Shown here: in pieces, positions 3,825 through 61,256 of the stretch | How the letters are laid out: each line of letters begins with the position of its first letter | Numbering within the stretch: position 1 is the stretch's first letter | Virus record (IMG/VR): IMGVR_UViG_3300022660_000063 | Span: 1-64,000 of that record | Reading direction: 5' to 3' (one strand) | Length of the DNA: 64,000 bases | From: a virus | Lineage: Duplodnaviria; Heunggongvirae; Uroviricota; Caudoviricetes | Translations under genes and position numbers: made by a program | Notes under the pieces: model-generated | What the model saw: the letters and a program-made list of their open reading frames with translations, nothing else | Databases searched by the model: none | What the model was told of the DNA's origin: nothing

Positions 3825-4411
3825 TGAACAAGATACAATTAAATGGAATAATAAAAAATATAGAATATTCTCATTATATACAAGATATAGAATTTTATAA
3901 AGCTAATCTAATAACTAGAAGAGAAAATGGAAAAGAAGATATTATAAATTTAAAATTTAAAAAGTTTTCAAACCCATATAAAGAAAATCAAGAAATATCT
4001 ATTCTAGGTAATATTAGAACTTTTAATAGACAAGAAGAAGATAGAAATAAAGTAGAATTATTTGTATTTACTTATTTTGATGAAGCAGAAGAAAGTCCTA
4101 ATAATCTCGCATACATAGATGGTAGAATATGTAAAAAGAATAATTTAAGAAAAACATCATCTGGAAAAGATGTTTTAGATTTTATATTAGCAAACAATAT
4201 AGAAAATAATGGGCAAGTATTAAATGTATATTTACCTTGTGTTGCATGAGGGAAGTGTGCTAAGGCATTAAATAAATTAAATGTTGGGGACAAGATTTTA
4301 ATTCAAGGTCAATTACAATCGAGAGAGTATAAAAAGAGATTAACAGAAACTGATTATGAGATACGAGTTTGTCATGAACTGAGTGTAAATACTTTTGAAA
4401 CTTTACAGTAA
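3824..4411 (+). CDS. ssb: single-stranded DNA-binding protein (OB fold) with in-frame TGA=Trp at 4247-4249
   Basis: ORF 3824..4249 continues in frame through TGA: '...LPCVA[W]GKCAKALNKLNVGDKILIQGQLQSREYKKRLTETDYEIRV...'. This matches SSB 'CVtWrrqAEn....kKGs.v.v.GrLqtR.Y', whose Trp is invariant. Confidence 0.8.
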
Positions 4412-4517
4412 AAAGTTTACATAGGAGTTTACTATATTCTTTTTATTCTAAAAGGATTAATAAAATAAATATACTACTAAGTTTACATTAATAGTAAACT
4501 ATTAAGGATAATTTAAG

Positions 4518-4892
4518 ATGGAATTTAAATATTATTATGTACAAACATATTCAGATACACTAAATATAGAAAATTTGGGTAATTGTTTTATAGAGGCGTT
4601 CAGTGATAAAGGTGTTAAAGTATATTTATGGATAAGAACAGAATTAGGCTTTTCTAAAATACTTGAAGCTGGCCCTTATATAGATGATGGGAATATACCT
4701 TGCAAAGTTTGTGATATATCATTCTTTCAAACAGAGTTCTCCGAATCAAAGATAATAAAGAGAATTCAGAGTTTTTTGAATATGCCAAGGTATGCTATAA
4801 CTCAAGCATTTGATAAACAAGAAGAATATTCGGAAGAAGAGAAATTTCAAAAACTGTATAATATTATAAATTATATGGAGAAAGAAAACTAA
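4518..4892 (+). CDS. hypothetical protein
   Basis: 124-aa ORF, RBS present, no motif recognised. Confidence 0.4.
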   Translation: MEFKYYYVQTYSDTLNIENLGNCFIEAFSDKGVKVYLWIRTELGFSKILEAGPYIDDGNIPCKVCDISFFQTEFSESKIIKRIQSFLNMPRYAITQAFDKQEEYSEEEKFQKLYNIINYMEKEN

Positions 4893-8600: not shown

Positions 8601-8776
8601 TGGACTGCGGACATCAAGAAGAAATGAATGATAAATGTCCAGAATGTGGTTCAGATAATATTGAAAGATTAAGAAGAGTTACAGGATATGTTTCTACAGA
8701 TTATCATAATTTTAATGAAGGTAAGATAGCGGAAGTAGAAGATAGAGTCAAACACACAGGAGTTCCTATTGAATAA
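5681..8776 (+). CDS. nrdD: anaerobic (class III) ribonucleoside-triphosphate reductase, interrupted by an in-frame intein
   Basis: 1031 aa (about 300 aa longer than typical). C-terminal glycyl-radical motif 'RRVTGYVSTDY' and Cys4 Zn site 'CMDCGH...CPECG'; internal intein/endonuclease segment (see next feature). Confidence 0.9.
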   Translation: MQIIKRDGSKQKFDEYKIWKAILGCFEDCCPKGEYVNDGVITELTNKVTQQLDKRKNYTVEQIQDIVELTLMEANKYEQAKAYIEYRQLHKLARNSYTELMNKVKAKLEAKNVENSNANLDENTFSGREKEAFGTILKEYALNNLVSETTRNNHINNEIYIHDLDAYASGMHNCLSIPLDDLLAKGFKVKQTDIRPAGTVNTAMQLSAVIMQLQSLCQFGGVSYTHFDWSMVPYVRKSFYKHYKEGLYWFGNEKYLEGITKETSIIDEKYKLNQDAYEYAMRQTEKETHQAVEALYHNLNSLQSRSGQQLPFSSINYGTCTLPEGRMITEELLNVSIEGLGKYHRTSIFPCGIFQCMKGVNRKPGDPNYDLFKLALKSTSKRLYPNYASVDWSGNAGYDVNDPKTYFSTMGALSGHEHLTVKIGNEEPIDLSIRDLFDYCKTDDLQNYKKTQIWYNREKLNEEPLGRHYQEKSGLPNLPGVYSITYLPEDVTYIGSSSSISRRCAEHKCAIGKTGGIDAGINFGDIDTANYEFKVLEITEDYKEAENLYIQKNANINPRGTDKKYYKLITQKSRHRVYDRPVFKVDLSKKQELIDLSEFDIKVLDRDNKWVKIKHIFKNDKLNTPYMMHIYYKEYDKEYCLSCTEDHPLWTGDKFTRADQLKIGDKLYRADNLELEITDICWHWEAVDSYDIGTETGSFIGSDIIMHNCRTANGWDINGLKQQKDGRGNIAPTTIILPTIAMKSKECTRASEESDIDVFMRLLECKINEAKDSLIERFEHICSQSPKSAPFMYENNTMAGYIPEEGIRSALKHGTLVIGQLGLAECLQILIGKDHTTKEGMELAKKIEQLFKDKCAYFKEQYKLNFGVYYTPAESLCKTAMTKFKEKYGIIPNISDRKYFTNSMHVPVYHNINAFDKIDIESQLTGYSSAGCITYVELDSSSIHNIEAIEKLVNYAMDKDIPYFAINVPNDVCMDCGHQEEMNDKCPECGSDNIERLRRVTGYVSTDYHNFNEGKIAEVEDRVKHTGVPIE
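6914..7804 (+). mobile_element. intein (about 297 aa) inside NrdD carrying a GIY-YIG endonuclease domain
   Basis: Block A-like 'ALSGHEHLTVKIGNEEPIDLSIRDL' and block B-like 'TEDHPLWTGDKFTRADQLKIGDKL'. Block F/G 'SYDIGTETGSFIGSDIIMHN' followed by Cys+1 'CRTANGW'. In between lies 'GVYSITYLPEDVTYIGSSSSISRRCAEHK' (GIY-YIG). N-terminal boundary is approximate (Ala1 at 6914 or Ser1 at 6920). Confidence 0.6.
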
Positions 8777-8813: not shown

Positions 8814-9398
8814 ATGTTTATAGGGATAGGCTGTTTAGCCTATCTATCATCTCCTGATAAAATAGTGGGTGCTTTCTTATTTACTGTAGGATTATTTGTT
8901 ATACTTACTTTTAAATTAAATTTATTCACAGGTAAGATTTGTTATGTTATAGAAAAGAAAAATTATTTAGAAGTAGTTATAACTTTACTTGGTAATTTTA
9001 TAGGAACATTATTACTAGCTTTAATGTGTAGAGCTACACGGTTAATTAATCTAATAGAGTATGCAAATGCAATATGTGAAATCAAATTAAGTGATTCCTA
9101 TATAAGTTTATTTATACTCGGAATTTTATGTAACATATTAATTTATATAGCGGTAGAAGGATACAATAAGTTCAAAGATATAAGAGGTATTTTATCTCTT
9201 TTCTTTGGAGTTATTATCTTTGTAGTTATAGGATTAGAACACTGTATTGCAGACATGTTTTACTTTAATTTTACTTTTATATATTCTTGAGAGGTATTAT
9301 TAAGATTATTAATTATAGTTTTAGGAAACGGTATAGGTGGAATAAGTATAAGATATTTATTTAGGAGACGTAATGAAATTTTTAAAGGAAGAGATTAA
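8814..9398 (+). CDS. formate/nitrite transporter (FNT, FocA/NirC-like) channel, compact 6-TM form; in-frame TGA=Trp at 9288-9290
   Basis: FNT signatures 'GAFLFTVGLFVILTFKLNLFTG', 'GILCNILIYIAV', 'IGLEHCIADMFYF' (FEHsIANMF) and, after the TGA, 'LGNGIGG' (LGNIVGG). Start uncertain: in-frame upstream sequence '..NWFIKSILAG' continues the TM1 pattern. Confidence 0.75.
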
Positions 9399-9945
9399 TA
9401 ATTTATACCACGCATATCATGGATCTAATGCAGAATTCGACAGATTTGAGCAGCAATTCATTGGAGCTCATGCATTAGGGCATGGATTTGGCTTTTACTT
9501 TACAGACGAAATTAATCAAGCTAAAAGTTATGGTGATTATGTTATAGAAGCAGATTTATTAATTAGAAAACCATTTTCAGATGACAGTATAACTATAGCT
9601 AAAAATCAAGTTAAAAATTATATTAGAAAATATGTAGATCCTATTGGAAAAGATTATTTATCTAACTATGGTTGGTATGAAGATGAAGGTTATGAAAATG
9701 TTTTAAATAATTGTGTAGAATCTTTATTTGCATATAACAATAGTGATAATGATATTATTAGTGAAATATTGTTTAATGTACAAAATAAATATACTGATGA
9801 AGCTTATGATGCTATATTTGAAATATTTGGAAAAGATGGAATTATATATCAAGGCTTTTCTGGCTGGCAAGGCGAACCTTTAACAAATTATTTAGTTTAT
9901 AGCAATTCACAAATATTAAATAAGAAAAAAATTAAGGTGAGATAA
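9373..9945 (+). CDS. PARP-like ADP-ribosyltransferase domain protein (H-Y-x class; catalytic Glu apparently replaced)
   Basis: 'LYHAYHGSNAEF....GHGFGFYFTDEINQAKSYG....TNYLVYSNSQI' parallels the PARP catalytic signature (HGS ... G.GiYFA ... KS.gY ... [E]YiVY) seen in ORF 21008..22177, but with Asn in place of Glu. Confidence 0.5.
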   Translation: MKFLKEEINNLYHAYHGSNAEFDRFEQQFIGAHALGHGFGFYFTDEINQAKSYGDYVIEADLLIRKPFSDDSITIAKNQVKNYIRKYVDPIGKDYLSNYGWYEDEGYENVLNNCVESLFAYNNSDNDIISEILFNVQNKYTDEAYDAIFEIFGKDGIIYQGFSGWQGEPLTNYLVYSNSQILNKKKIKVR

Positions 9946-13808: not shown

Positions 13809-14897
13809 ATGTCTAATATAGATGAAGTAAGAACTCTAGCCAAATTAGTTGCTGATAAAATTAGAAAGGATAAATGTATGTTGAATATAAAAGAAATAAT
13901 AAGTAAACCTGAGTATAGATGGCTAGAAGAATATAAAGATAGATTATGCTTCTTAGTTATATCAGGTTCTCATGGATATGGTACTAATGTAGAAGGTAGT
14001 GATATTGATATAAGAGGAGTTATGCTACCCACTAAAGATGAATTGATTGGGTTAAAAACTTTTAAACAAAGAGAAGATTCGAGCACAGACACAACTATTT
14101 ATGAGTTTAATCAATTTATCAAACTTGCTATGGCAAATAACCCAAATGTGATTGAAATGTTAGGTTTCAAACATTATCTTATATTTAATGAAATTGGGCA
14201 TGACTTACTTGATAGTTTACCTTTATTATTAAGTAAAAAATGTTATCAAACATTTAATGGTTACGCAGTAGCGCAATTAAGAAAAATTGAAAATGCTTTA
14301 GCAAGTACTGAATATACTGAAGAAGAAAAAGTAAAACATATAAAGCAAACAATGGATGTTGCTATGATGAAACTATCTGAATCAAACAAATTATTTGCAG
14401 ACGGCTGTATAAATGTTACTGCAGATTTAGATAAACTTTATATTGACTGTAATATAAAACAAGCACCAATAGACCTAGTAAGAAGTTCTTTAAATGATAT
14501 ATTAACTATAGAAAAAAGTTATAATAAAATAAATCAAAGAAATACTAAACCAACTATGGAAAAATTGAATAAACATTGCATGCACTTATTTAGACTAATC
14601 ATAACTTGTTGTGAGATACTAGAGAAAGGTGTATTAAATTCTTATAGAGAAGATGATAGGGATTTTCTATTGGATATCAGAAATGGTAAGTTTATAAAAG
14701 ATGGTCATTTAACAGCAGAATTTACAAATACTTTAAATGGATTAAATAAAAGATTACAATTAGCAGAGAGACATTCTACATTGCAAAAAACACCTAATTA
14801 TGATGAATTGAATAAATTTGTCACCGATGTAAACAGTAAAGTTATAACTGATACTGTATTAAAATACAAAGAACCATTGGAGGAGATCATACTATAA
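13809..14897 (+). CDS. Pol-beta-superfamily nucleotidyltransferase domain protein
   Basis: 'LVISGSHGYGTNVEGSDIDIRGVM' (GS-x9-DxD minimal NTase motif) with a downstream acidic 'TDTTIYEF'; rest is helical. Confidence 0.55.
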   Translation: MSNIDEVRTLAKLVADKIRKDKCMLNIKEIISKPEYRWLEEYKDRLCFLVISGSHGYGTNVEGSDIDIRGVMLPTKDELIGLKTFKQREDSSTDTTIYEFNQFIKLAMANNPNVIEMLGFKHYLIFNEIGHDLLDSLPLLLSKKCYQTFNGYAVAQLRKIENALASTEYTEEEKVKHIKQTMDVAMMKLSESNKLFADGCINVTADLDKLYIDCNIKQAPIDLVRSSLNDILTIEKSYNKINQRNTKPTMEKLNKHCMHLFRLIITCCEILEKGVLNSYREDDRDFLLDIRNGKFIKDGHLTAEFTNTLNGLNKRLQLAERHSTLQKTPNYDELNKFVTDVNSKVITDTVLKYKEPLEEIIL

Positions 14898-16816: not shown

Positions 16817-18088
16817 ATGGAGATAAAATTACCAAAATATGTTGAATTACTAATAAACATGTTAAATGAAAATGGTTATGCAGCATATGCAGTTGGTGGC
16901 GCTATTAGAGATTCTATATTAGGTATTGAACCAAAAGATTGGGATATAGCAACAAGTGCTTTACCTGCTGAAACAAAGAAACTATTTGAAGATAATAGTT
17001 TTCACAAGAGTGATATGGATATTTATTTTAAAGTTATTCCAACAGGAGAAAAATATGGCACTATGACTATTGAAGTTATAGAAAAATATAAATTAAATAA
17101 ATATGAACATCTTGCAGGTATTTATGAAATAACCACATTTAGATATGATAGCGATTACACTGATGGTAGAAGACCAAATAATGTAACTTTTGGTGAATCT
17201 ATTATAGATGATTTAGATAGAAGAGATTTTACTATGAATGCTATTGCTTATAACCCATTAGTAGGTATAGTAGACCCACATAATGGTGTTGAAGATATTA
17301 AAAATAAAATAGTTAAAGCAGTAGGAGACCCACAGGTTAGAATAAAAGAAGATGCTTTGAGAATTTTAAGGGGCATTAGATTTGCTTGTAAGTATAATTT
17401 TGAGTTAGAGAATGCAACAAGCAATGTTATAGCGGGTACTGGTAGTCTCTTAAAGAATGTATCAAAAGAAAGAATTACTGAAGAAGTTAAGAAGATATTA
17501 GAATATTCAAAAGGTAATTCTGAAACTTTAAATTCAACAATAGAAACACTAGCAGAGATATTTGAGATACCTCAAAACAAAGTAAGTAAATGGGGTAGTA
17601 ACCAGGTCATCATAGATATAGATAATGACAACCCACCTATGTTAAAGTTGTATTCAATATTGAATAAGTATAAGTCAATGATAGATGCAGAAATTTGGAT
17701 GAGGTTATATAAATATAGTAACCAACAAATCAAAGAGGTTATTAGCTATTATAAGATGTCAAAGTTTATGGAAGATGTTCAGCAACAAGATATTGTCCTA
17801 ACAATCAAGCAACTATTCAATAAATTTGAACATGCATACGTATGCAAGTATTTGGGTATTTACACAAAAATAGAAGGAATAGATTTGTCAGAAATTACAA
17901 GTCAACCATATAGATTACAAGACTTGGCAATAGATGGGCACTTTCTTCAATCTACATTTGATATAAGTGGTGAGAAGATAGGTAAGGTTCTTAATTTCTT
18001 ATTAGGCAAAGTTATGGAGAATTCCCAACTAAACACAATAGAAACTTTATCTGAAATTACAAGGAGATACTTAAATGGAGAAAATTAA
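16817..18088 (+). CDS. cca: CCA-adding tRNA nucleotidyltransferase / poly(A) polymerase family
   Basis: Head-domain motifs 'AVGGAIRDSILG', 'DWDIAT' and 'RRDFTMNAIAY'. Confidence 0.8.
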   Translation: MEIKLPKYVELLINMLNENGYAAYAVGGAIRDSILGIEPKDWDIATSALPAETKKLFEDNSFHKSDMDIYFKVIPTGEKYGTMTIEVIEKYKLNKYEHLAGIYEITTFRYDSDYTDGRRPNNVTFGESIIDDLDRRDFTMNAIAYNPLVGIVDPHNGVEDIKNKIVKAVGDPQVRIKEDALRILRGIRFACKYNFELENATSNVIAGTGSLLKNVSKERITEEVKKILEYSKGNSETLNSTIETLAEIFEIPQNKVSKWGSNQVIIDIDNDNPPMLKLYSILNKYKSMIDAEIWMRLYKYSNQQIKEVISYYKMSKFMEDVQQQDIVLTIKQLFNKFEHAYVCKYLGIYTKIEGIDLSEITSQPYRLQDLAIDGHFLQSTFDISGEKIGKVLNFLLGKVMENSQLNTIETLSEITRRYLNGEN

Positions 18089-18485
18089 GATATATGCTGA
18101 TGGTGCTTGTAGAGGAAATCAATTTGCAGAAAACATAGGTGGTTATGGGATAGTGCTTCAGTACCAAGATCAATATAAAGAACTAAAAAATGCTTTTCGA
18201 AATACAACTAATAATAAAATGGAAATTTTATCTGTGATAGAAGGGTTAAAAGCATTAAAAGTATATGATATTCCTATTGAAGTATATTCAGATAGCCAAT
18301 ATGTAGTTAGTACAATTAATTTAAATTGGAATAAAAAAGCTAATTTAGATTTATGGGAAGAACTGTATACATATATAAATAAATTTAAAGATATTAGATT
18401 CATAAAAGTAAAAGGACACTCAGATAATGAATTTAATAACAGGGCAGATAAATTAGCAAATGAAGCTATGGATGCTTTAAAATAA
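18075..18485 (+). CDS. rnhA: ribonuclease HI
   Basis: 'IYADGACRGNQ', 'MEILS', 'YSDSQY', 'GHSDNEFNNRADKLA' (DEDD plus His). Confidence 0.85.
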   Translation: MEKIKIYADGACRGNQFAENIGGYGIVLQYQDQYKELKNAFRNTTNNKMEILSVIEGLKALKVYDIPIEVYSDSQYVVSTINLNWNKKANLDLWEELYTYINKFKDIRFIKVKGHSDNEFNNRADKLANEAMDALK

Positions 18486-18498: not shown

Positions 18499-19056
18499 AT
18501 GATCTATAATAGCATTTATTTGAATAAAAAACATGAAAAAGTTTGTAAGGAATTCTATAAAAGGTTTGCTTACGGTGAACAATATTTAAGTTTGAATCAT
18601 ATTGGTGAAATAGAAGAGATGCCTAGAGATTATTATTGGCAAGAAAGAGAGGTATATAATATAATATTACCTTATATAAATTTACTTAAAAATAAAGGGG
18701 TAAAGGATAAAGATTTATATGGCAGATATGGATTTGTATCTCTAGTATATAACCTACAAGTAGCTTATAATAAAGTTAAAAATAATGCTTTAACAATTAT
18801 AAATAGATATGCTTTCCCAACTGCTCTAATAGAAGATGGTTCAGTTGATATCGATAGCTTAGAAGAAGAGGGATTAGCTCCAGGGAAAATCTTAGTTTAT
18901 AGACAAGGTGCTCAAAAACCAGATACTAGTCAGGATTTCTTAAAAACAGATATTTTATTTTCATTATCTACTTATGAAGAGCACCTGGAAACTGAAATGC
19001 GTAAAATGTATGATTTATTCTTAGAAGGATGGTATAAAAACAATGAGAAAATATAA
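18499..19056 (+). CDS. hypothetical protein
   Basis: 185 aa with RBS. Confidence 0.4.
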   Translation: MIYNSIYLNKKHEKVCKEFYKRFAYGEQYLSLNHIGEIEEMPRDYYWQEREVYNIILPYINLLKNKGVKDKDLYGRYGFVSLVYNLQVAYNKVKNNALTIINRYAFPTALIEDGSVDIDSLEEEGLAPGKILVYRQGAQKPDTSQDFLKTDILFSLSTYEEHLETEMRKMYDLFLEGWYKNNEKI

Positions 19057-19681
19057 TAAAATTGAAGCAATTTATGCAAGAGATGAAGAAACTAAAAAGA
19101 CTATAGATAAATATAGAAACCCAACTATAGAATTTTTAAAAGATTTAACTTGGCAATTTACTGAAAAAGTGGATGGTACTAATGTTAGAGTTCATTGGGA
19201 TGGTCATAAAGTAACGTTTGGTGGAAGAACAGATAATGCATCAATGCCTGCATTTTTAGTAAATAGACTAAATGAATTATTCGGTGGTAATGCTAATGAA
19301 GAACTATTTGAACAAAAATTTGGTGAAATGGAAGTAACCTTATATGGTGAAGGATATGGACCTAAAATTCAATCAGGTGGAGCTTATAGAAATGATGTAG
19401 ATTTTATTTTATTTGATGTTCAAATAGGAGATAATTATCAACCAAGAGAATCTGTAGAAGATATAGCGAATTACTTTAAATTAGATATTGTACCTATTTT
19501 ATTTGAAGGTCCATTAAGTAGAGGGATCAACTATGTTAAAACAGAAAGAAGAAGTGCTATAGCAAAGAATGGGCACTTGATTGAAGGACTTGTTGCAAGA
19601 CCTAAATTTGAATTGAAAGATAGATGCGGGAATAGAATTATTGTTAAAATAAAATATGAAGATTTAAAGGATATATTATAA
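19043..19681 (+). CDS. minimal ATP-dependent RNA ligase (Rnl2/Rnl5-like nucleotidyltransferase)
   Basis: Motif I 'EKVDGTN', III 'FILFDV', IV 'EGLVAR', V 'RIIVKIK'; 212 aa. Confidence 0.65.
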   Translation: MRKYNKIEAIYARDEETKKTIDKYRNPTIEFLKDLTWQFTEKVDGTNVRVHWDGHKVTFGGRTDNASMPAFLVNRLNELFGGNANEELFEQKFGEMEVTLYGEGYGPKIQSGGAYRNDVDFILFDVQIGDNYQPRESVEDIANYFKLDIVPILFEGPLSRGINYVKTERRSAIAKNGHLIEGLVARPKFELKDRCGNRIIVKIKYEDLKDIL

Positions 19682-19682: not shown

Positions 19683-19892
19683 ATGAAACAGTTTATTAGA
19701 AATAAGACTTTTGAAACAAACTCAAGTTCTACTCATAGTTTAACTTTGGATAACCATAATAAAATAACAGATCTACTATATGAAGCTATAAACAAAATTG
19801 AAAGTATAGATAGTATGGATGAAGTATATGCAATTCTTGGATTAATGAAACGAGCAGAACGTTTATTACTAGATAATTTAGGAGATTATTAA
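19683..19892 (+). CDS. member A (short, 69 aa) of the 'MKQxIRNxTFETNSSSxHSL' paralogous family
   Basis: N-terminus MKQFIRNKTFETNSSSTHSL. Confidence 0.5.
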   Translation: MKQFIRNKTFETNSSSTHSLTLDNHNKITDLLYEAINKIESIDSMDEVYAILGLMKRAERLLLDNLGDY

Positions 19893-19894
19893 AT

Positions 19895-20767
19895 ATGAAA
19901 CAACTTATTAGAAATTCAACCTTTGAAACAAATAGCAGTTCAATGCATAGTTTAGTTATATCTAAGAAAGTTAAACCTTACTCAGTTAGTGATAAATCAT
20001 TGCACTATTATGGCAATGATTTTGAACTATTTGGATGTTGTGATACTCATTCTTTTGGAAGAACACCTTTTGAAGTTTTATCTAGTCCAAAAGATAAACT
20101 AAGATATTATGTAGCACATTATGTAGGTTTCAAAAAAGAAAAAGAAAGGTTAAAAGAAGTTGAAGATCTTGTTTATGAGCTTACAGGATGTTCTAGGGAG
20201 AAAATAAAATTATATTGTGAAGAAGAATACCCTTGGAAAAAGAAACCAGAAAAATCTTATGGATATGCTGGTATAAATGACACAGGCGAAGATGTATTTG
20301 ATTATATTGAAAAGAATAATATATCTTTGAGAGAATTTATCCTTGACCCTAGGTACACTGTTATTGTAGATGGTGATGAATACCAAGAGTTTAAAAAATT
20401 ATTTAAAAAAGGTATTATTGATTTAGATAATATAGATTATATATCTAGTGGTAAGCATTTTTGGATTGATGATATTAAAACATTTAGTCTATATTACATT
20501 AATAGATTTGTAAATGATGATGTTTATAATGAATTTATGGAAGAGATAGATAATTATAATAATGAATTTATAAAATGTATTGAAATAGAAGATGAAGAGG
20601 ATGTTGATATAAATCAATCAGCTATGATAACATTTGCATCAGTATTAGAATGTTTTAAGCATTTAACTTATGGCAGAAATATACCAATCAAACTTATTCT
20701 TAAAACTCATTCACTAGATGATTTTAAACCAATATTAAAATATATAAGTTTAGAAGTTGATAATTAA
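19895..20767 (+). CDS. member B (290 aa) of the 'MKQxIRNxTFETNSSSxHSL' family
   Basis: N-terminus MKQLIRNSTFETNSSSMHSL, then unrelated acidic C-terminal region. Confidence 0.5.
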   Translation: MKQLIRNSTFETNSSSMHSLVISKKVKPYSVSDKSLHYYGNDFELFGCCDTHSFGRTPFEVLSSPKDKLRYYVAHYVGFKKEKERLKEVEDLVYELTGCSREKIKLYCEEEYPWKKKPEKSYGYAGINDTGEDVFDYIEKNNISLREFILDPRYTVIVDGDEYQEFKKLFKKGIIDLDNIDYISSGKHFWIDDIKTFSLYYINRFVNDDVYNEFMEEIDNYNNEFIKCIEIEDEEDVDINQSAMITFASVLECFKHLTYGRNIPIKLILKTHSLDDFKPILKYISLEVDN

Positions 20768-20829: not shown

Positions 20830-20853
20830 ATTTATAATTAAAAGGAGTAGCTA

Positions 20854-21009
20854 TGGTAGTAGTAAAAGAATCTTATAATATAAATAATGAATTAGAACTT
20901 AATATATGTTCTACTTTTCTGTATATTTTATATAAAGATAAGATAAACAAAGGTTTAGCAAATATCACATTTGAAAATAATATTTTATATTACAGGGAGA
21001 TTGTATAAT
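20854..21009 (+). CDS. possible small ORF (51 aa)
   Basis: AAGGAG RBS then ATG; fills the gap between P4 and the PARP gene. Confidence 0.3.
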
Positions 21010-22177
21010 GAATAAAAAGTTAATATGTGTTACACCTAACAATAATAATAAGTTTTACAATATGACAGATCTCGGTGACGGTACTTTCGAAGTTGAATAT
21101 GGAAGAGTTGGAGCTACAAGTGTAAAAACTTCTTACTCTATGTCTCAATGGGATAAAAAATACAATGAAAAAATAAAGAAAGGGTATGTTGATATAAGTG
21201 AATCTTTATCTCAAGACATTAAAAAAGCTTCTTTAAAGATAGATGATAAAGATGTTAAAGATTTAATTTCATTTCTTATGAGTTGTGCAAAACAGTCTAT
21301 CAAATCAAATTATGAAGTATCACTGGACTCAATTTCAGATATTCAAATAAATAAAGTCCAAGAAATATTAGACGAGTTGAATGACTTGGATTTAACAAAA
21401 TTACCTTATAATATTATAAATAACTATCTTCAAAAGGTGTATACAACTATACCAAGAAAAATGTATGATACAAGAGCTTTTTTCTTAAAACCTAATTACA
21501 CTAAACAAGAATTTATAGAATTATTACAAGAAGAACAAAATAAACTCAACACACTTAAATCACAAGTTAATTTGAATACCCAATCTAATAAAATTGAAGA
21601 TATAACATTAGAAACACTTGGGTTTGATTGTAGATTAGCAACGCAAGAAGAAAGAGAATTTATAGCTGCCAATACTGATTTTAGAGTTAATAATCAAAAA
21701 ATATTTAGAGTTACAAATCATGAAACTGAGAAAGTATTTAATCCAGATAATCTTAAAACAAGACTTTTATATCATGGAAGTAGAAATGAGAATTATCTAA
21801 GCATTATGCAAACAGGGTTAAAAATTAGACCTAAGGGTGTTGTCTTAACAGGTTCGATGTTTGGTAATGGTATATATGCAGCTAATAAAGCAAGAAAAAG
21901 CATTGGTTATACATCATTAAGAGGTAGTTATTGGGCATCTGGCTCAAGTAATAAAGCTTATCTAACTATATTTGAATTTGCTACAGGTCAAGAATGGCGA
22001 ATTTTAGATAATGAAAGTTATAAATCTTGGATGGGCAGGATTACTGAAGATCAAGTTAAATCACAAAAATGTAATTCAGTATTTGCTAGAGGTGGTGCTG
22101 ATTTAAGAAACGATGAATATATTGTATATAATAGTAATCAATGTACTATTAGATATATAATTGAAATAAATAATTAA
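21008..22177 (+). CDS. poly(ADP-ribose) polymerase-like protein (WGR domain plus PARP catalytic domain, H-Y-E triad)
   Basis: N-terminal WGR-like 'FYNMTDLGDGTFEVEYGRVGATSVKTSY...KIKKGY'. C-terminal 'LLYHGSRNENYLSIMQTGLKIRP', 'GSMFGNGIYAANKARKSIGY', 'NDEYIVYNSNQ'. Confidence 0.8.
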   Translation: MNKKLICVTPNNNNKFYNMTDLGDGTFEVEYGRVGATSVKTSYSMSQWDKKYNEKIKKGYVDISESLSQDIKKASLKIDDKDVKDLISFLMSCAKQSIKSNYEVSLDSISDIQINKVQEILDELNDLDLTKLPYNIINNYLQKVYTTIPRKMYDTRAFFLKPNYTKQEFIELLQEEQNKLNTLKSQVNLNTQSNKIEDITLETLGFDCRLATQEEREFIAANTDFRVNNQKIFRVTNHETEKVFNPDNLKTRLLYHGSRNENYLSIMQTGLKIRPKGVVLTGSMFGNGIYAANKARKSIGYTSLRGSYWASGSSNKAYLTIFEFATGQEWRILDNESYKSWMGRITEDQVKSQKCNSVFARGGADLRNDEYIVYNSNQCTIRYIIEINN

Positions 22178-22191: not shown

Positions 22192-22656
22192 ATGTTAATA
22201 GTTTTATTTTTAATTTCTGTAGGTATACTTATATCAGGTTTGTTAGTATATAAACTAACAGATTATGGAGATGAAAATCCATATAGTTATATAGGTATTA
22301 TTTTAGGCATTCTTTTATCGCTTGGTGCTTTTGTAACACTTATAGTAGGTGGGATAACTATATCAGAAAGTAGTATTATTGATGATAAAATACAAATGTA
22401 CACTGAGGAGAATACAAATATCGAAACAACTATCACAGCTACAGTAGAGAAATATCTTGAGCACGAATTAAACATATTTGATAGTTTACAAGGTGAAGAC
22501 ATACAAACGCTATTGGTAGTATACCCAGAAATTAATAGCAATGAGCTTGTTAAAGCACAAATAGAAGTGTTTATAGATAACAATAACAAAATAAAAGAAT
22601 TAAAAGAACAAAAACTAAATATTCAAGTTTGGAAATTTTGGGTTTATTTTGGATAG
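22192..22656 (+). CDS. membrane protein (2 TM)
   Basis: Two hydrophobic helices at the N-terminus. Confidence 0.45.
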   Translation: MLIVLFLISVGILISGLLVYKLTDYGDENPYSYIGIILGILLSLGAFVTLIVGGITISESSIIDDKIQMYTEENTNIETTITATVEKYLEHELNIFDSLQGEDIQTLLVVYPEINSNELVKAQIEVFIDNNNKIKELKEQKLNIQVWKFWVYFG

Positions 22657-22666
22657 GAGGAGAGAA

Positions 22667-23306
22667 AATGAGATCTATTTTAATTAGTATTAAACCTGAA
22701 TGGGTTGAGAAAATATTTACCGGTAAGAAAATTCTTGAAATCAGAAAATCAATCCCAAAATGCAATCTGCCTTGTAAAGTTTATATTTATTGTACTCAAT
22801 CTACTAAGTATGCTTTTTATCATATTAAAGATGAAAGATTCATGTTATATAAAGGTACTGGAAAGCAAGTAAATGGTAATTTGAGTTGCGGTACAAAATT
22901 AAATGGTAAAGTAGTTGCAGAATTTACATTGCATGATATTGAAACTATTGATAGAGATTATAATGATTGGCTACCAAAAAGAATGTATGATATAATGCCA
23001 AGTCAATTAGAGGCATCTTGTTTAACTGAAGAGCAACTAGATAATTATGGTAAAGGTAAAACTTTATACGCATGGTGTATAGATGATTTGAAAATTTATA
23101 AACAACCAAAAGCGTTAAATGAATTTAAAAAAGACTTAGATTGTGATGATTATCCTTGCAATAAAAATAGTGATTGTAAATATAACTATTATGACACAAG
23201 TGAAGGTTGTTGGGCTTGTGGGATCGACTTTGATGGTGCAAATTGTATTTATAAACAAATAAATAAAGCCCCACAAAGCTGGTGTTATGTAGAGGAGATT
23301 AAGTAA
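22667..23306 (+). CDS. ASCH-domain protein with Cys-rich C-terminus
   Basis: 'SIKPEWVEKIFTGKKILEIRK' and 'GKGKTLYAWCIDDLKIYKQP' ASCH/PUA-like pattern; ATG 22667 after GGAGGAG. Confidence 0.55.
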
Positions 23307-23307
23307 C

Positions 23308-24042
23308 ATGTATGATTATGAAGATTATTATAGAGAACCATCAGAGATAGAAGATTTATTTAATGAGTATTCAGCAAAATTACAAACAATGTTAAAGAAT
23401 GAGATTGTAAATAATGCTAAGAAATATGATGTAAATAAAGATGAAGTTAAAACTATGATGATGGTTGCGAATGGACTTAAAGAAGAGTATGAAAAGAAAC
23501 TTGAAGATTTTGATAATGAAATAAGTAAAGCAGCCCAAGAACAACATAATAAATGGTTAGAGAAATTACTCCACACTGATATTAAAGTTGGTGATACTGT
23601 TTATAAGATATATTCAAATGGGTATACTTATCTAACTTGTCCTTATTGTGAAAATGGAAAAGTTGCAGTCACTTTAGGTAATAGAATAGAATCTGTTGAT
23701 TGTCCTATTTGTAAAAATTATAGACCATCTCTACCTAAATATGAGTATAAAAAAGTTAGAGTAAGACAATTAAGTATGACTCTCACTTGTTCAGATAAGA
23801 ATGAAAAAGCTACTCCTTATGTTGATAATTGGGTAGATACATCTAATTATCCTTTTAATAAATTCCAATGTAATTGGTGCATTAGAGATGAGAATTGGGA
23901 CACTTTAACATCTGATAGAACTGCAAAAACAGAAGAACAGGCAAAACTACTTATTACTCATATTAAAGAAGAAGCAATAAGTAAATTAGAAGAAAAATAT
24001 GGTAAAGATAAAGTTCAAGATATGTTAAAGGAGATTGAATAA
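23308..24042 (+). CDS. hypothetical protein with zinc-ribbon motifs
   Basis: CPYCENGK...CPICKN and CNWC. Confidence 0.4.
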   Translation: MYDYEDYYREPSEIEDLFNEYSAKLQTMLKNEIVNNAKKYDVNKDEVKTMMMVANGLKEEYEKKLEDFDNEISKAAQEQHNKWLEKLLHTDIKVGDTVYKIYSNGYTYLTCPYCENGKVAVTLGNRIESVDCPICKNYRPSLPKYEYKKVRVRQLSMTLTCSDKNEKATPYVDNWVDTSNYPFNKFQCNWCIRDENWDTLTSDRTAKTEEQAKLLITHIKEEAISKLEEKYGKDKVQDMLKEIE

Positions 24043-24043
24043 A

Positions 24044-25360
24044 ATGGTTTTAAAAGTATTTGAAGAATTTGTAAATGAAATTAACTCTAGTAATTCTAGA
24101 TTATATAAAGAAGCTGTGTTAGATAAATATAAAGAAAATGAATATGTAAAACAAATAGTTCATTTTATATTCAACCCCTATATTGTCACAGGTATCTCAA
24201 AAAAGAAAATAGATAGAATTAAATCTTCATTTATAAGTAAAGAAGATATACCAGAAACTTATGATATATTTGACTTACTTAATTATGTTAAGTTGAATAA
24301 CACTGGTTCAGATTCAACTTTAATTGAAGTCTTAAAATGTGCTATGTCTAATAAAGATTATTCTGAACTTATATTTAAAATAGTTTCTAAAGATATTAAA
24401 TTGGGTATTCAATCAACAACTATAAATAAAATTTGGGGTGATAATTTTATACCTTGCTTCGACGTGATGTTAGCACAAAAATATTTTGACAATCCAGATA
24501 AACTTGTTCCAGAAGGGATTCAATTTATTTTGACTCCAAAGTTAGATGGTGTCAGATGTGTTTTAATTAACGATGGTTTTTCAGGTGCAAAATTCTTTTC
24601 CAGACAAGGTCAGTTAATAGAGCAATTGATAGAACTTGAAGAAGAAGCAAAACAGTTACCTATGGGTTATGTATATGATGGTGAACTACTGTTAGATAAC
24701 AAAGATAATTTAGAGAGTAAAGATTTATATAGGGCAACTGTAAAAGTTACTAGTGCAGATAAAGAAAAAACTAATCTTATATTCAATGTTTTTGACATGA
24801 TTCCAATTACAGATTTTCAAAATGGTTATTGTAATGCGCCTGCATCTTTAAGAAAAGAGCAATTATTAAAACAATTTACTTTTATGAAATTACCTCATAT
24901 AGTTGACGTTCCTATCTTATATTATGGTGATGATAAACAGGTTATTACTGAACAATTAGATATTATAACAGCTGCTGGAGGTGAGGGTGTCATGATTAAT
25001 ATTGCAGATGCCCCTTATGAATGTAAAAGAAGCAAAGGCTTACTTAAAGTTAAGAAAATGCAAACCTGCGATGTTAAAGTTGTTGGTATGGAAGAAGGTA
25101 CAGGAAAAAATAAAGGTAAACTTGGAGCATTAAAGATTGAATTTATTGGTCCTGATGGGTTTACTTATCAAAATGATGTAGGTTCGGGTTTGACTGATGA
25201 GGATAGAGAGTATTATTGGGATAACCCAGATAAAATTTTAAATAAAATAATTGAAATACAATATTTTGAAATATCAGCCAATCAACAAGGTACTTTTGGA
25301 TTAAGGTTTCCTGTATTCAAGTGGATAAGAGAAGATAAGACTGATATATCAATGTATTAA
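24044..25360 (+). CDS. ATP-dependent DNA ligase
   Basis: Motif I 'TPKLDGVRCV', III 'FNVFDM', IV 'EGVMIN', V 'LLKVKK'. Confidence 0.8.
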   Translation: MVLKVFEEFVNEINSSNSRLYKEAVLDKYKENEYVKQIVHFIFNPYIVTGISKKKIDRIKSSFISKEDIPETYDIFDLLNYVKLNNTGSDSTLIEVLKCAMSNKDYSELIFKIVSKDIKLGIQSTTINKIWGDNFIPCFDVMLAQKYFDNPDKLVPEGIQFILTPKLDGVRCVLINDGFSGAKFFSRQGQLIEQLIELEEEAKQLPMGYVYDGELLLDNKDNLESKDLYRATVKVTSADKEKTNLIFNVFDMIPITDFQNGYCNAPASLRKEQLLKQFTFMKLPHIVDVPILYYGDDKQVITEQLDIITAAGGEGVMINIADAPYECKRSKGLLKVKKMQTCDVKVVGMEEGTGKNKGKLGALKIEFIGPDGFTYQNDVGSGLTDEDREYYWDNPDKILNKIIEIQYFEISANQQGTFGLRFPVFKWIREDKTDISMY

Positions 25361-32581: not shown

Positions 32582-33062
32582 ATGTGTTAAATGCGGAAAT
32601 GAAATTTTAACAGGAGATATCCATTGGGAAATGGGCTTATGTAACAACTGTTATAATGAATTATATAAAGACCATAAAACTCATATTAGTTTGGATAATA
32701 TGTGGTTGAAACTTGCTCAAGATTTTAGAGATGAGAACGAAAAATTGCAAGACAAGGTAACCGACCTAGAAGCAAAACTAGTATTGAAATCTTCATTTAG
32801 TAAGTTTACATTATCTGACGAGTTATATAAATTATATATAAATTTGGAAAGAGAATATACAAAATCAAGCCAAGAAATTGCTGAGAGAGGTAAAGAAATT
32901 GAAAAATTAAGAGTTATGTTAGATACCTCTTTAACAAAACTCCATAAAGCAAGGAGGAAAATAAATAGAGTATTATTGAAAATAGCTAAATTTGAAGCCG
33001 AATTAGATAATTATACTATACAAAATGAAACTTTCTTAAAGAGAGGCAATCAGCATGAATAA
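32574..33062 (+). CDS. zinc-ribbon plus coiled-coil hypothetical protein (GTG start)
   Basis: CVKCGN...CNNC. Confidence 0.35.
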   Translation: MSKCVKCGNEILTGDIHWEMGLCNNCYNELYKDHKTHISLDNMWLKLAQDFRDENEKLQDKVTDLEAKLVLKSSFSKFTLSDELYKLYINLEREYTKSSQEIAERGKEIEKLRVMLDTSLTKLHKARRKINRVLLKIAKFEAELDNYTIQNETFLKRGNQHE

Positions 33063-34035
33063 AGATATAAAAATAATAGGATTAGACATAGCAGAAGATA
33101 GGTTACCTAAACTGGTTGTGATGTGTGGTTTGCAAGGTTCCGGTAAATCAACTATTGCAGAAGAATTGAGTTTGAAATATAACATGATTGTATTATCTAG
33201 TGATAAATTAAGAAAAGAATTTCCAGATGAGAACAATGAATTTATTTTTAGACGCTTATATAATCAAGCAAATATAGCTTTGAAACAAGGATTAAATGTT
33301 ATCCTAGATGCAACTAATATTACAATTAAATCTAGAAAACAAATATTTTTAAATATAAAAGAACCTTGTAAAAAGATTTGTTACATAGTAAACACGCCTT
33401 ATGAAGTATGTATAGAAAGAGTTAAAAAAAGAAATGAAGATATAAATTCTCATCAAGTTCCATTAGAAGTGGTTAGAAGATATTTAGAATCTTTTGAAGT
33501 ACCTTTTTATGAAGAAGGATGGGACAACATATTACTGTATAATATTATAGGGCATAATGAGTCTGTAGAAAATTTTAATAATATGATGAAATCTGCATTT
33601 GGATTTGACCAACATAATAAACATCATACTCAATTATTACATGAACATTTAGAATCGGTTGCTAATCAATTATATGATATAGATAATGTTTTATATGAAG
33701 CAGGATTATTACATGATATAGGCAAACTTGATACGCAGACATATAAAGAAAATGACCCTAATGCACATTACTATAATCATGCCAATGTTGGTGCTTATAA
33801 AGTATTATGTAATTATATGTCTTGGTATATGATAGAACAATTAGGAGAAGATTATCCTAAATATGATACTACATTAGATATAGTATTTTACATAAATTAT
33901 CATATGCATATGTATAATATTAAAACTGAAAAATCTGAAAGGAAGTGGAGACAAGTATTTGGGGATATAAAATTTAATAATTTAAAATTGTTAAATGAAG
34001 CTGACCAATTTAATCATAGTAAGGAGATAAAATAA
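33055..34035 (+). CDS. polynucleotide 5'-kinase (T4 Pnk-like P-loop) fused to an HD phosphohydrolase domain
   Basis: Walker A 'MCGLQGSGKST' and 'ILDATNITIKSRKQ' (Pnk-like); C-terminal 'HHTQLLHEHL....GLLHDIGKL....YNHANVGAY' HD motifs. Confidence 0.75.
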   Translation: MNKDIKIIGLDIAEDRLPKLVVMCGLQGSGKSTIAEELSLKYNMIVLSSDKLRKEFPDENNEFIFRRLYNQANIALKQGLNVILDATNITIKSRKQIFLNIKEPCKKICYIVNTPYEVCIERVKKRNEDINSHQVPLEVVRRYLESFEVPFYEEGWDNILLYNIIGHNESVENFNNMMKSAFGFDQHNKHHTQLLHEHLESVANQLYDIDNVLYEAGLLHDIGKLDTQTYKENDPNAHYYNHANVGAYKVLCNYMSWYMIEQLGEDYPKYDTTLDIVFYINYHMHMYNIKTEKSERKWRQVFGDIKFNNLKLLNEADQFNHSKEIK

Positions 34036-48194: not shown

Positions 48195-48722
48195 ATGAAT
48201 TATATAAAAGATATTAGATTAAAAGAAGATTCTGCATATGCAGGAATCATTGAAATCCCTAAAGGGACAAACAGTAAATATGAATTAGTTGAACCTAATA
48301 ATGATCATGTAATCTGCGTAAGGAAAGTAATAGGAAAATATCCATTTTATTATGGATGTTTTCCAGAAACTTTTGCTGGAGATGGTGACCCATTGGATAT
48401 GATATTATTATCTAACAAGCAAAGAGGCATTTTAGATATTGTTTCAGTTCAGCCGATAGGAGTTATTAAAACAATTGATGATGGTGAAGTTGATGATAAA
48501 GTATTAGTTATTGCAAACGATGAACCAATCGATCATATAGATAAATTAGAAAAGAAGACTTTAAAATTTCTTAAGAGATATAAAGGTAAAAAATCTAATA
48601 TGATATTAGATGAAACCATATATGATGCTATAGAAGCTATTAAAATAATAAATCAAGCAAACAAGAATTATAAAGAAAAATTTAGTAAAGTAAATTCTAA
48701 TAAAAATTTATCTAGCTTTTAG
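48195..48722 (+). CDS. ppa: inorganic pyrophosphatase (family I)
   Basis: 'IIEIPKGTNSKYE', 'YGCFPETFAGDGDPLDMILL' and 'DDGEVDDKVLVI' match the Ppa active-site pattern. Confidence 0.75.
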   Translation: MNYIKDIRLKEDSAYAGIIEIPKGTNSKYELVEPNNDHVICVRKVIGKYPFYYGCFPETFAGDGDPLDMILLSNKQRGILDIVSVQPIGVIKTIDDGEVDDKVLVIANDEPIDHIDKLEKKTLKFLKRYKGKKSNMILDETIYDAIEAIKIINQANKNYKEKFSKVNSNKNLSSF

Positions 48723-59931: not shown

Positions 59932-59932
59932 T

Positions 59933-61243: not shown

Positions 61244-61256
61244 TAATCTAAATAAT

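Follow-up and report, generated by a model that had tools for sequence, protein, structure and literature searches.

PARPs encoded by phages have been documented before (Perina 2014, PMC4245714; Iyer 2021, PMC7824862; Iyer 2022, PMC9503650), and the PARP genes of Cellulophaga phage phi4:1 and of jumbo phages are part of that literature (PMC4245714, PMC7824862). Surveys count PARPs among the more frequent viral ADP-ribosyltransferase (ART) families. A functional study of any phage PARP, biochemical or genetic, was not found in the literature searched. Among the bacterial enzymes, the PARPs of Herpetosiphon and Clostridioides difficile make PAR in vitro, and the Herpetosiphon enzyme requires DNA (PMC8120803). 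At DNA breaks, PARP1-3 attach ADP-ribose to terminal phosphates, and ligases can use a 5'-phosphate modified by PARP3; PARylation is credited only to PARP1, PARP2 and the tankyrases, and PARP3 MARylates (PMC8385414).

The stretch of DNA analysed here, called the window in the following, comprises 64,000 nucleotides (positions 1 to 64,000 of IMG/VR record IMGVR_UViG_3300022660_000063) from an uncultured and abundant phage of the Caudoviricetes, whose genome of roughly 154 kb is apparently complete. It carries a gene whose product is predicted, from its sequence and a structural model, to be a compact three-domain PARP of PARP1/2/3 type within the bacterial and phage branch. A phage PARP is a known kind of gene that has been catalogued in PHROG 23333, in the surveys and in GenBank, where homologs already bear the name poly(ADP-ribose) polymerase; the new lead is its context.

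The PARP gene and its three domains

The gene and its parts are located as follows.

20853-21008, plus strand: 51-aa ORF upstream of PARP, its stop overlapping the PARP start as TAATG
20994-20999, plus strand: Shine-Dalgarno-like AGGGAG, 8 nt upstream of the PARP ATG, read from the sequence
21008-22177, plus strand: PARP gene, an ATG-to-TAA ORF of 389 aa (44.9 kDa, pI 8.7)
21008-21199, plus strand: WGR domain, aa 1-64, of the "YGR" variant (N14-K15-F16-Y17, Y31-G32-R33-V34-G35, K58-G59-Y60)
21239-21592, plus strand: predicted divergent helical regulatory domain (HD, the PARP_reg equivalent), about aa 78-195, from model helices, Foldseek and the family profile
21623-22171, plus strand: ADP-ribosyltransferase (PARP catalytic) domain, aa 206-388, with the Pfam match at aa 225-388
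21773-21775, 21875-21877 and 22115-22117, plus strand: catalytic codons of H256, Y290 and E370 (codons checked)

The protein matches Pfam PARP (PF00644; E=3.8e-24; 85.7 bits, gathering score 26.7), PHROG 23333 over its full length (E=7e-51) and PARP2 in the PDB (E=2e-14), where H256, Y290 and E370 fall on the PARP2 triad. Chance does not account for matches of this strength. A first, sequence-only reading had proposed a WGR-domain PARP encoded by a phage, and sequence, profile and structure evidence bear this out. The motifs it quoted were all found: HGS is H256-G257-S258, GNGIYAA...KSIGY holds Y290, K297, S298 and Y301, and DEYIVY holds E370. The overlap with the 51-aa ORF, which is without a family match, makes translational coupling possible. 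A promoter scan gave 75 promoter-like sites where 58 would be expected, and a terminator scan gave 0; both scans are uninformative in DNA with 27% GC.

Taken alone, the WGR domain is a borderline Pfam match (E=3.2e-4; 21.2 bits, 0.8 bit under the cutoff of 22), but it is backed by matches in 30 of 41 PARP relatives (best E=1.6e-8; all 41 match PARP), by the family profile, in which NNNK(F/Y)Y...(Y/W)GRVG aligns to the PARP2 WGR, and by a fold match. In the AlphaFold (AF2) model of the protein (pLDDT 86.6, pTM 0.78), this region forms a beta-sheet, after which residues 45-57 are helical. The YGR variant is known from bacterial PARPs (PMC5966428). The best Foldseek matches of the model are the WGR-HD-CAT regions of PARP1 and PARP2 on DNA breaks (7s6m_B at 9e-20, 6x0l_P and 4dqy_C), with TM scores of 0.60-0.65 across some 470 aligned columns. 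In PARP2 chain 7aeo_A, the family profile (E=8e-35) finds three separate stretches, namely the WGR, the HD plus ART, and the strand with the catalytic Glu.

The helical regulatory domain between the WGR and the catalytic domain had been overlooked in the sequence-only reading, and it is recognised here at the level of structure and profile only. Pfam PARP_reg has no match in the protein and weak matches in only 2 of the 41 relatives. The model predicts four long helices and one short one within aa 81-192 (helices at 81-101, 111-126, 134-147 and 166-192), and both Foldseek and the family profile align the region to the HD of PARP1 and PARP2, including the Y..IP motif, which is part of a conserved Y..IPRKM (P149, R150). 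The domain matters for the mechanism, since its presence would imply an autoinhibition that is relieved by nucleic-acid binding.

In the catalytic domain, H256, G257, Y290, S298, Y301 and E370 align to PARP2 residues, that is to the triad and to the Gly, Ser and Tyr of the nicotinamide pocket; S258, M284 and K297 are further residues of this domain. Judged from these residues, the predicted NAD+ pocket is complete (H256-G257, Y290, K297-S298, Y301 and the catalytic E370). Invariant among 41 sequences of 32-69% identity are N14, G32, R33, G59, Y102, N138, P149, R150, E176, H256, G257, G282, Y290, K297, Y301 and E370, so that the H-Y-E triad is intact as had been claimed. An assignment to a different ART clade lacking the Glu, which would have spoken against that claim, was not obtained: the profile match is to PARP and E370 is present. 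An identity as KptA/Tpt1 was rejected, with a score of 15.3 bits for NCBIfam NF002013, the cutoff of which is 231, and the triad H-Y-E, and one of the T4 Alt/Mod type was rejected as the wrong clade.

PARP3 and PARP4 carry H-Y-E as well. The triad is needed but not enough for polymer synthesis, and the sequence is compatible with the addition of single units as well as of chains. Polymer synthesis by the phage enzyme is uncertain because its catalytic domain falls short of the PARP1 one by an estimated 45 residues or so and because the position of PARP1 Y986 is taken by an invariant Asn (N368).

Distribution and gene neighbourhood

At least 24 public contigs, up to 154.6 kb long, encode exactly this PARP protein. 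All catalytic residues are retained in more than 100 full-length relatives with identities of 48-98%, the conservation of the NAD+-pocket residues is strong across hundreds of relatives, and 467 clusters were obtained at E<=1e-30. On one near-identical contig of 154,387 bp, the gene was called as 53 + 299 aa, which suggests that PARP may be dispensable. Genomic relatives come from Saprospiraceae, Cytophagales and Clostridia, with at most 49% identity to any genomic homolog found. Among phage isolates, homologs were found in 16 of 50,697 phage records, and the rarity in phages that had been noted at first is thus fair in relative terms. Megablast of the 19-26 kb stretch of the window against the same number of phage records gave no match, so this is not a deposited phage. 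Its lytic lifestyle, which had been assumed from the start, is plausible from the gene content, with 0 integrase families in Pfam scans and precomputed Pfam marks over the 84 kb examined.

The following genes provide the context.

9373-9945: ART-PolyVal, a second ART of the phage that is unrelated to PARP
13809-14897, plus strand: RlaP, RNA-ligase-associated Pol-beta nucleotidyltransferase
16817-18088, plus strand: nucleotidyltransferase of the CCA-adding / poly(A) polymerase family
18075-18485, plus strand: RNase H
19043-19681, plus strand: RNA ligase (PF09414), 1.3 kb upstream of PARP
24035-25360, plus strand: ATP-dependent DNA ligase (Pfam DNA_ligase_A_M plus OB_2), 1.9 kb downstream of PARP
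33055-34035, plus strand: P-loop kinase (AAA_33) plus HD phosphohydrolase, polynucleotide-kinase-like

PARP lies within a block of genes, all on one strand, for the processing of nucleic-acid ends (RlaP, CCA-adding enzyme, RNase H, RNA ligase, DNA ligase and kinase-HD). Its immediate neighbours (19683-20767, 20853-21008 and 22192-24042) match only families of unknown function or, weakly, ASCH in PHROG and Pfam. The ATP-dependent DNA ligase is a candidate functional partner of PARP. In a 68%-identical relative, the same block is found, the linkage of PARP and ligase is kept and the kinase-HD gene also lies downstream of PARP. In Cellulophaga phi4:1, the PARP of which is 30% identical, the order is CCA enzyme, PARP, a hypothetical ORF of 154 aa and DNA ligase, as it is here, and between the 154-aa ORFs that follow PARP in the two phages homology is not detectable (E=0.41).

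In a comparison of 48 distant viral PARP groups, DNA ligase emerged as the most frequent neighbour family (19/48, in both orders), and the PARP-linked viral ligases all cluster with the ATP-dependent ligase of the window. Other neighbours are a 2H-like protein (16/48), an RNA ligase of a PF09414 subtype different from that of the window (14/48) and RlaP within 6 kb of PARP (12/48); at least one of these families, DNA ligase included, is found in 28 groups, and a TARG1-like macrodomain lies near PARP in six. When PARPs were grouped at 60% identity, five of the 19 groups had a ligase. A small number of related phage clades accounts for much of the linkage, which could be explained by shared ancestry or by a general clustering of replication genes. 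That the linkage is universal in phages was rejected, as ligase and RNA-repair genes are absent near the PARP genes of XacN1, Klebsiella 05F01, Stenotrophomonas RAS14 and LR756500. The partners of bacterial PARP homologs are an unknown protein of 115 aa and a macrodomain.

Pfam scans of about 90 window ORFs gave no Macro, PARG, ARH, NADAR, Nudix or NAD salvage family, HMMs built from the PARP-linked macro and 2H-like clusters had 0 matches in the six-frame translated window, and the precomputed Pfam marks for 10 kb on either side held no PARG, macrodomain, ARH or NADAR eraser. The search for erasers thereby covered 84 kb (window and 10-kb flanks) of the roughly 154-kb genome, and the lack of an eraser over this length is odd for a reversible signalling system. 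PADLOC (PADLOC-DB) gave no defence-system match for PARP.

Possible roles in infection

The most likely function, put forward here with moderate confidence, is a break-activated ADP-ribosylation in the repair or replication of phage nucleic acids. The mechanism is modelled by homology on PARP1-3 and the pair of bacterial PARPs with activity in vitro. In phage DNA that is damaged or being replicated, and possibly also in RNA, the WGR domain would bind a strand break or a 5'-phosphorylated end, upon which the autoinhibitory helical domain would unfold. The catalytic domain would then use NAD+ to ADP-ribosylate PARP itself, proteins in the vicinity and/or the terminal phosphate at the break, and this modification might mark or protect the break and assist sealing by the phage ligase. 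That both WGR and HD are retained argues for such a nucleic-acid-gated activity rather than a free-running transferase.

A role in host takeover has been put forward for phage PARPs in surveys (PMC7824862, PMC9503650). [quoted passage not shown] The second, unrelated ART makes ADP-ribosylation of host targets a plausible part of the strategy of this phage, and PARP neighbourhoods vary between phages. However, the break-sensing WGR motifs and the HD are strictly conserved, which would be needless in a simple protein modifier, and the commonest identifiable neighbours are nucleic-acid end-joining enzymes. PARP is also neither near head or packaging genes nor fused to MuF or polyvalent modules, where many host-directed phage ARTs occur (PMC9503650), and takeover is regarded as rather unlikely. 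If host proteins were modified after all, poly- or mono-ADP-ribosylation by an H-Y-E enzyme would join the takeover tools of phages.

Tentatively, and with more doubt, PARP may be a nucleic-acid end modifier that is coupled to the ATP-dependent DNA ligase of the phage, and perhaps also to its RNA ligase. It would sense a 5'-phosphorylated nick or break and ADP-ribosylate the terminal phosphate, leaving a protected, AMP-like activated end that could be sealed by the ligase or would be proof against host nucleases. If true, this would be a counterpart in a prokaryotic virus of the PARP3-type ADP-ribosylation of DNA ends, so far seen mainly in vitro, and would give the reaction a physiological role.

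An action on RNA ends in phage tRNA repair appears improbable. PARP would here cap 5'-phosphorylated ends with ADP-ribose or replace the ART-fold 2'-phosphotransferase KptA/Tpt1 after ligation. RlaP, the CCA-adding enzyme, RNA ligase and kinase-HD are close by, and no KptA was seen in the window; the RNA ligase, 2H-like, RlaP and TARG1-like macrodomain genes at viral PARP loci recall a KptA-2H-Macro pathway (PMC9503650). RNA 5'-phosphates are substrates for ADP-ribosylation by several PARPs and TRPT1 in vitro (PMC8385414), and the protein has a weak NCBIfam match to RNA 2'-phosphotransferase (E=0.011). Against this stand the triad, which is H-H-h in KptA, the KptA match far under its cutoff, the macro and 2H partners missing from the window, and an architecture with best structural matches to PARP1 and PARP2 bound to DNA breaks.

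Of the functional ideas in the sequence-only reading, which also named DNA-damage signalling mimicry and counter-defence, NAD+ depletion ranks last. Hyperactivated by breaks in degraded host DNA, PARP would consume host NAD+ and deprive the NAD+-dependent host ligase and NAD+-using defences of it, while the phage would rely on its own ATP-dependent ligase. The ATP dependence of the nearby ligase, with which all PARP-linked viral ligases cluster, and the lack of NAD+ salvage genes in the window are in line with such a drain, but break repair explains the ligase linkage equally well. Depletion of NAD+ is, on the contrary, a means by which host abortive-infection systems stop phages. As the autoinhibitory architecture is conserved and a NADase-like loss of regulation is not apparent, the drain is held to be very improbable. 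That PARP is a passenger, dispensable or decaying and without a role in infection, is hardly credible, as the split calls of the PARP gene and, in another near-identical contig, of the ART-PolyVal gene are countered by the intact exact protein on many contigs and by the wealth of full-length relatives with all catalytic residues.

A compact natural WGR-HD-ART enzyme, together with a cultured relative that has the PARP-ligase arrangement (Cellulophaga phi4:1), makes the role of phage PARPs directly testable. If break-activated ADP-ribosylation cooperates with the phage ligase, PARP-type break signalling or DNA-end ADP-ribosylation would work outside eukaryotes, and this would be relevant to the proposal that eukaryotic PARPs originated from phages and bacteria.

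Comparison with known systems

KptA/Tpt1 also has an ART fold, uses NAD+ and occurs in phage RNA-repair neighbourhoods, but belongs to the H-H-h clade, in contrast to the H-Y-E of phage PARP. T4 Alt, ModA and ModB are phage-encoded NAD+-dependent ADP-ribosyltransferases, as is predicted for the PARP described here, but they are R-S-E-clade enzymes without WGR or HD that act as mono-ARTs on host proteins, and some of them are packaged in the head (PMC8120803, PMC9503650).

With human PARP1, PARP2 and PARP3 (e.g. PDB 7aeo, 6x0l, 4dqy and 7s6m), phage PARP shares the order and fold of WGR, HD and ART at about 20% identity, whereas zinc fingers, BRCT domain and N-terminal tail are missing. The H-Y-E triad and the WGR motifs NNNK(F/Y)Y and (W/Y)GRVG are common to both; differences are the Y for W in the WGR motif, an HD that Pfam does not recognise, the shorter catalytic domain and the Asn in place of PARP1 Y986. 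The phage enzyme further has equivalents of K903, S904, Y907 and M890 of PARP1.

Bacterial PARPs of Clade 1, from Cytophagales and Clostridiales, are compact WGR-(helical)-PARP proteins with the YGR variant and a G-Y after the WGR helix, like phage PARP, and Pfam finds no PARP_reg in them although the domain is helical by modelling, exactly as in phage PARP (PMC5966428). The bacterial enzymes that have been tested, from Herpetosiphon aurantiacus and Clostridioides difficile CD160, are of Clade 2 and, unlike phage PARP, have a recognisable PARP_reg. The annotated phage PARPs, namely Cellulophaga phi4:1 gp031, Xanthomonas XacN1 ORF414 (BBA65562.1), that of Xoo-sp13 and Klebsiella 05F01 gene_103, are full-length homologs with 24-33% identity.

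Gene, domains and family of the window PARP

The PARP gene (21008-22177, + strand) is a single ORF of 389 aa with an ATG start and a TAA stop. An AGGGAG ribosome-binding site lies 8 nt 5' of the ATG, and the start overlaps the stop of an upstream 51-aa ORF as TAATG. All motifs quoted in the sequence-only reading were found in its translation, namely HGS (H256-G257-S258), GNGIYAA...KSIGY (containing Y290, K297, S298 and Y301) and DEYIVY (containing E370). The proposal of a WGR-domain PARP with an intact H-Y-E triad was borne out by Pfam, PHROG, PDB alignment, family conservation and an AlphaFold2 model. Pfam recognised the PARP catalytic domain clearly (E=3.8e-24, 85.7 bits, gathering score 26.7); the WGR match was borderline (E=3.2e-4, 21.2 bits, 0.8 bit short of the cutoff) and is backed by 30 of 41 relatives. 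A PHROG 23333 match spans the whole protein (E=7e-51). The best PDB sequence matches were catalytic fragments of PARP2 and PARP1 (2e-14), in which H256, Y290 and E370 pair with the H-Y-E residues of PARP2.

A public-database search returned 4,947 homologs at E<=1e-5, and the best 120 of these are all about 385-400 aa long and 48-98% identical, many on contigs of 140-165 kb. When 1.84 billion cluster representatives were searched exhaustively, 3,105 clusters matched at E<=1e-3, of which 467 reached E<=1e-30; among the best 150 clusters listed, nearly all measure 370-430 aa and give an end-to-end alignment. From these counts, the uniform lengths and the end-to-end alignment, the protein belongs to a large family of compact PARPs. 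Across 38 close relatives 84 columns are invariant, and 16 residues are invariant in 41 sequences spanning 32-69% identity: N14, G32, R33 and G59 in the WGR region, Y102, N138, P149, R150 and E176 in the middle domain, and H256, G257, G282, Y290, K297, Y301 and E370 in the catalytic domain. Position 31 is Y among close relatives and W among more distant ones; a 'YGR' variant of WGR was already described for bacterial PARPs (PMC5966428).

Pfam domains in individual scans of the same 41 family members
PARP: 41/41, best E=2.5e-27
WGR: 30/41, best E=1.6e-8
PARP_reg: 2/41, best E=0.0014

The AlphaFold2 model, computed from the family alignment, was confident (pLDDT 86.6, pTM 0.78). In it, aa 1-62 form a beta-rich N-terminal domain, aa 81-192 a helical bundle and aa 206-388 a C-terminal domain of alpha/beta type. 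The model's top Foldseek PDB matches were multi-domain WGR-helical-catalytic PARP1/PARP2 chains on DNA double-strand breaks, in the order 7s6m_B (9e-20), 6x0l_P, 7aeo_A and 4dqy_C, with query TM-scores mostly of 0.60-0.65 (7aeo_A 0.50) over about 470 alignment columns. The family profile matched PARP2 chain 7aeo_A (E=8e-35) in three stretches: the WGR with NNNK(F/Y)Y...(Y/W)GRVG aligned, the helical plus catalytic part including the Y..IP(R/H) motif, and the strand bearing the catalytic Glu. On the basis of profile, Foldseek and model domains, this is a WGR-HD-ART PARP, with a helical regulatory domain (HD) before the catalytic ADP-ribosyltransferase (ART) domain. Both ends of the layout first proposed, WGR and catalytic, thus held, and the middle regulatory domain had been missed. 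Pfam misses this middle domain too, just as has been reported for 'Clade 1' bacterial PARPs (Cytophagales, Clostridiales; PMC5966428).

Gene neighbourhood and its recurrence

The gene lies within a same-strand run of nucleic-acid end-processing genes.

Genes around the window PARP, all on the PARP strand (+)
13809-14897: RlaP
16817-18088: CCA-adding / poly(A) polymerase family enzyme
18075-18485: RNase H
19043-19681: RNA ligase
21008-22177: PARP
24035-25360: ATP-dependent DNA ligase
33055-34035: P-loop kinase + HD protein

The same block is present in a relative with a 68%-identical PARP. In Cellulophaga phage phi4:1, at just 30% PARP identity, the order is CCA-enzyme, PARP, 154-aa ORF and DNA ligase; homology between the 154-aa ORFs of window and phi4:1 was not detectable. 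Between RNA ligase and PARP, two adjacent ORFs (19683-19892, 69 aa; 19895-20767, 290 aa) have a common N-terminus, MKQ.IRN.TFETNSSS.HSL (18/30 identical), and no Pfam, PHROG or PADLOC match.

Linkage was assessed in 80 IMG/VR loci with PARPs 36-43% identical to that of the window and in 80 bacterial/archaeal genome-assembly loci. ORFs were called up to 6 kb from PARP and clustered by BLASTP, and merging PARPs at 90% identity gave 48 viral groups.

Neighbour families of PARP among 48 viral groups
ATP-dependent DNA ligase: 19/48, the commonest, upstream or downstream of PARP
237-aa protein, unknown family: 18/48
174-aa protein with two HxS/T motifs: 16/48, 2H-phosphoesterase-like by eye, no Pfam match
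PF09414 RNA ligase: 14/48
RlaP: 12/48
TARG1-like macrodomain: 6/48, median 10 nt upstream of PARP, Pfam Macro E=6e-4

Of the 48 groups, 28 have one or more of ligase, RNA ligase, 2H-like protein, RlaP and CCA enzyme. Since the DNA ligase is found on either side of PARP, this is not one frozen block. With grouping at 60% PARP identity the ligase occurs in 5 of 19 groups, a weaker signal after allowing for relatedness, and XacN1, Klebsiella 05F01, Stenotrophomonas RAS14 and LR756500 have no ligase/RNA-repair neighbours near their PARPs. The immediate neighbour of the XacN1 PARP is a vWA-domain protein.

Bacterial-genome PARPs have different partners from viral ones. In 39 of 71 groups PARP is followed on its own strand, after about 100 nt, by a 115-aa protein of unknown family; 9 of 71 have a macrodomain nearby. 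The conserved 115-aa partner was seen in Bacteroidota loci (L085-L164; e.g. L110 11655-12002), some of which also carry a TARG1-like macrodomain upstream (median distance 10 nt). Jumbo phage LR756500 (L169 22449-23916) has homologs of both next to each other, some 9 kb away from its PARP. HMMs built from the PARP-partner clusters found no macro, 2H-like, 115-aa or 237-aa homologs in the six-frame window. Likewise, no Macro, PARG, ARH, NADAR or Nudix domain appeared in Pfam scans of about 90 window ORFs or in precomputed Pfam annotation of 10 kb on either side.

The phage, its host and further genes

The window has a GC content of 25-32%, with nearly all genes on one strand, and no DNA-level match for its 19-26 kb stretch was found among 50,697 deposited phage genomes. 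The exact PARP protein is present on at least 24 public contigs. Several of these measure 154,386-154,576 bp with differing start points, which points to a complete genome of about 154.4 kb that is circularly permuted. A Bacillota host is likely, as an anaerobic ribonucleotide reductase suggests that the host is anaerobic, Geobacillus and Bacillus phage ligases are the nearest to the DNA ligase (about 40% identity), and the closest PARP from genome assemblies lies on an Oscillospiraceae MAG contig (49% identity). No integrase was found in Pfam scans or precomputed Pfam marks of the 84 kb examined, and the lytic lifestyle assumed in the sequence-only reading is plausible.

The reductase, NrdD (5681-8776, 1031 aa), contains an internal GIY-YIG domain (aa 480-555) that looks like a homing-endonuclease insertion, and a NUMOD3-motif ORF lies at 236-691. 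A second ADP-ribosyltransferase, unrelated to PARP (9373-9945, Pfam ART-PolyVal E=4e-11), has a weak PADLOC PDC-M13A match; in the near-identical contig L168 its gene is called as two fragments (68 + 58 aa). L168 also encodes a 501-aa DUF2828 + DUF7788 protein at 3380-4885, some 6 kb before the window begins, with two further proteins nearby, a PDDEXK_5 nuclease and a Metallophos protein. Host-like metabolic genes (1250-1969, 8814-9290, 38567-40036, 48195-48722) encode a peptide deformylase, a 158-aa formate/nitrite-transporter-like protein, a 489-aa protein with an N-terminal Cu/Zn superoxide dismutase domain, and an inorganic pyrophosphatase with a DGDPLD motif. A diversity-generating retroelement occupies 59915-62993.

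Parts of the retroelement
59915-61243: target ORF
61129-61235: variable repeat, at the 3' end of the target ORF
61271-61699: Avd-like ORF
61719-61825: template repeat
62127-62993: reverse transcriptase (RVT_1)

All template/variable mismatches fall on template adenines in a core of about 107 nt. Downstream of the retroelement the analysis placed several large LRR_5 proteins, of the BspA leucine-rich-repeat type and with repeats within their DNA (window 52785-54134, L167 14264-20272); they are probably receptor-binding or tail-fibre proteins.

Possible function and relation to known phage PARPs

We lean towards break-activated ADP-ribosylation that would serve phage nucleic-acid repair or replication. 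This reading builds on the complete NAD+ pocket and catalytic Glu, the conserved WGR motifs, a helical domain that has been kept, conservation in hundreds of lineages, and the repair and replication gene context; with the ligase adjoining, the enzyme may act where phage DNA is nicked or broken. By homology, the WGR would bind a break or 5'-phosphorylated end, whereupon the helical domain would unfold; in PARP1-3 it is this domain that bars NAD+ access. The catalytic domain might then ADP-ribosylate itself, neighbouring proteins and/or the terminal phosphate. The model draws on two bacterial PARPs that made PAR in vitro, of which the Herpetosiphon enzyme required DNA (PMC8120803), on the ADP-ribosylation of terminal phosphates at DNA breaks by PARP1-3, and on the use of a PARP3-modified 5'-phosphate by ligases (PMC8385414). 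Such DNA-end marks are removable by PARG, TARG1, MacroD2 or ARH3 (PMC8385414).

The catalytic domain is shorter than that of PARP1, and the equivalent of PARP1 Y986 is an invariant Asn in the family. PARP3 carries H-Y-E. Since PARP3 nevertheless MARylates (PMC8385414), and in view of these two differences, mono versus poly activity cannot be called from the sequence.

Modification of host proteins, the view taken in PMC7824862 and PMC9503650, is unlikely here; that the sensor has been kept as well as the autoinhibitory domain speaks against a free-running protein modifier or NADase. That PARP and the phage ligase work together, PARP modifying the ends of DNA or RNA, is quite doubtful. An RNA-end or KptA-like role fits the gene context but not the triad and profile, and is improbable. 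A NAD+ drain combined with ATP-ligase independence appears very improbable. One near-identical 154,387-bp JGI contig has PARP called as 53 + 299 aa products, either a frameshift/nonsense variant or an assembly error, which hints that the gene may be dispensable; a decaying passenger gene, the reading that this call would favour, can hardly be credited beside break-activated ADP-ribosylation.

Perina et al. 2014 reported PARP genes for two phages, Aeromonas phage Aeh1 and Cellulophaga phage phi4:1; they found four viral PARPs, and in three of them the H-Y-E triad is fully conserved (PMC4245714). Iyer et al. 2021 cite PARPs in a few jumbo phages, with BBA65562.1 as the example (PMC7824862), and Iyer et al. 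2022 rank PARP with the ART families that are most frequent in viruses (PMC9503650). BBA65562.1 is XacN1 ORF414. Rarity, as first supposed, was confirmed among isolates: of 50,697 phage records, 16 gave a tblastn homolog, full-length or partial, and most of these 16 already annotate the gene as poly(ADP-ribose) polymerase. A BFVD phage homolog (TM 0.78) is named NAD(+) ADP-ribosyltransferase. Because phage PARPs are already present in the literature, GenBank annotations and BFVD, this is not a new system type; it is a known one, rare among isolates. It is worth following, as the literature searched for a functional study of any phage PARP yielded none, the PARP-DNA-ligase and RNA-repair neighbourhood, unmentioned in the available parts of all three papers, is recurrent, and a culturable relative has the same arrangement.
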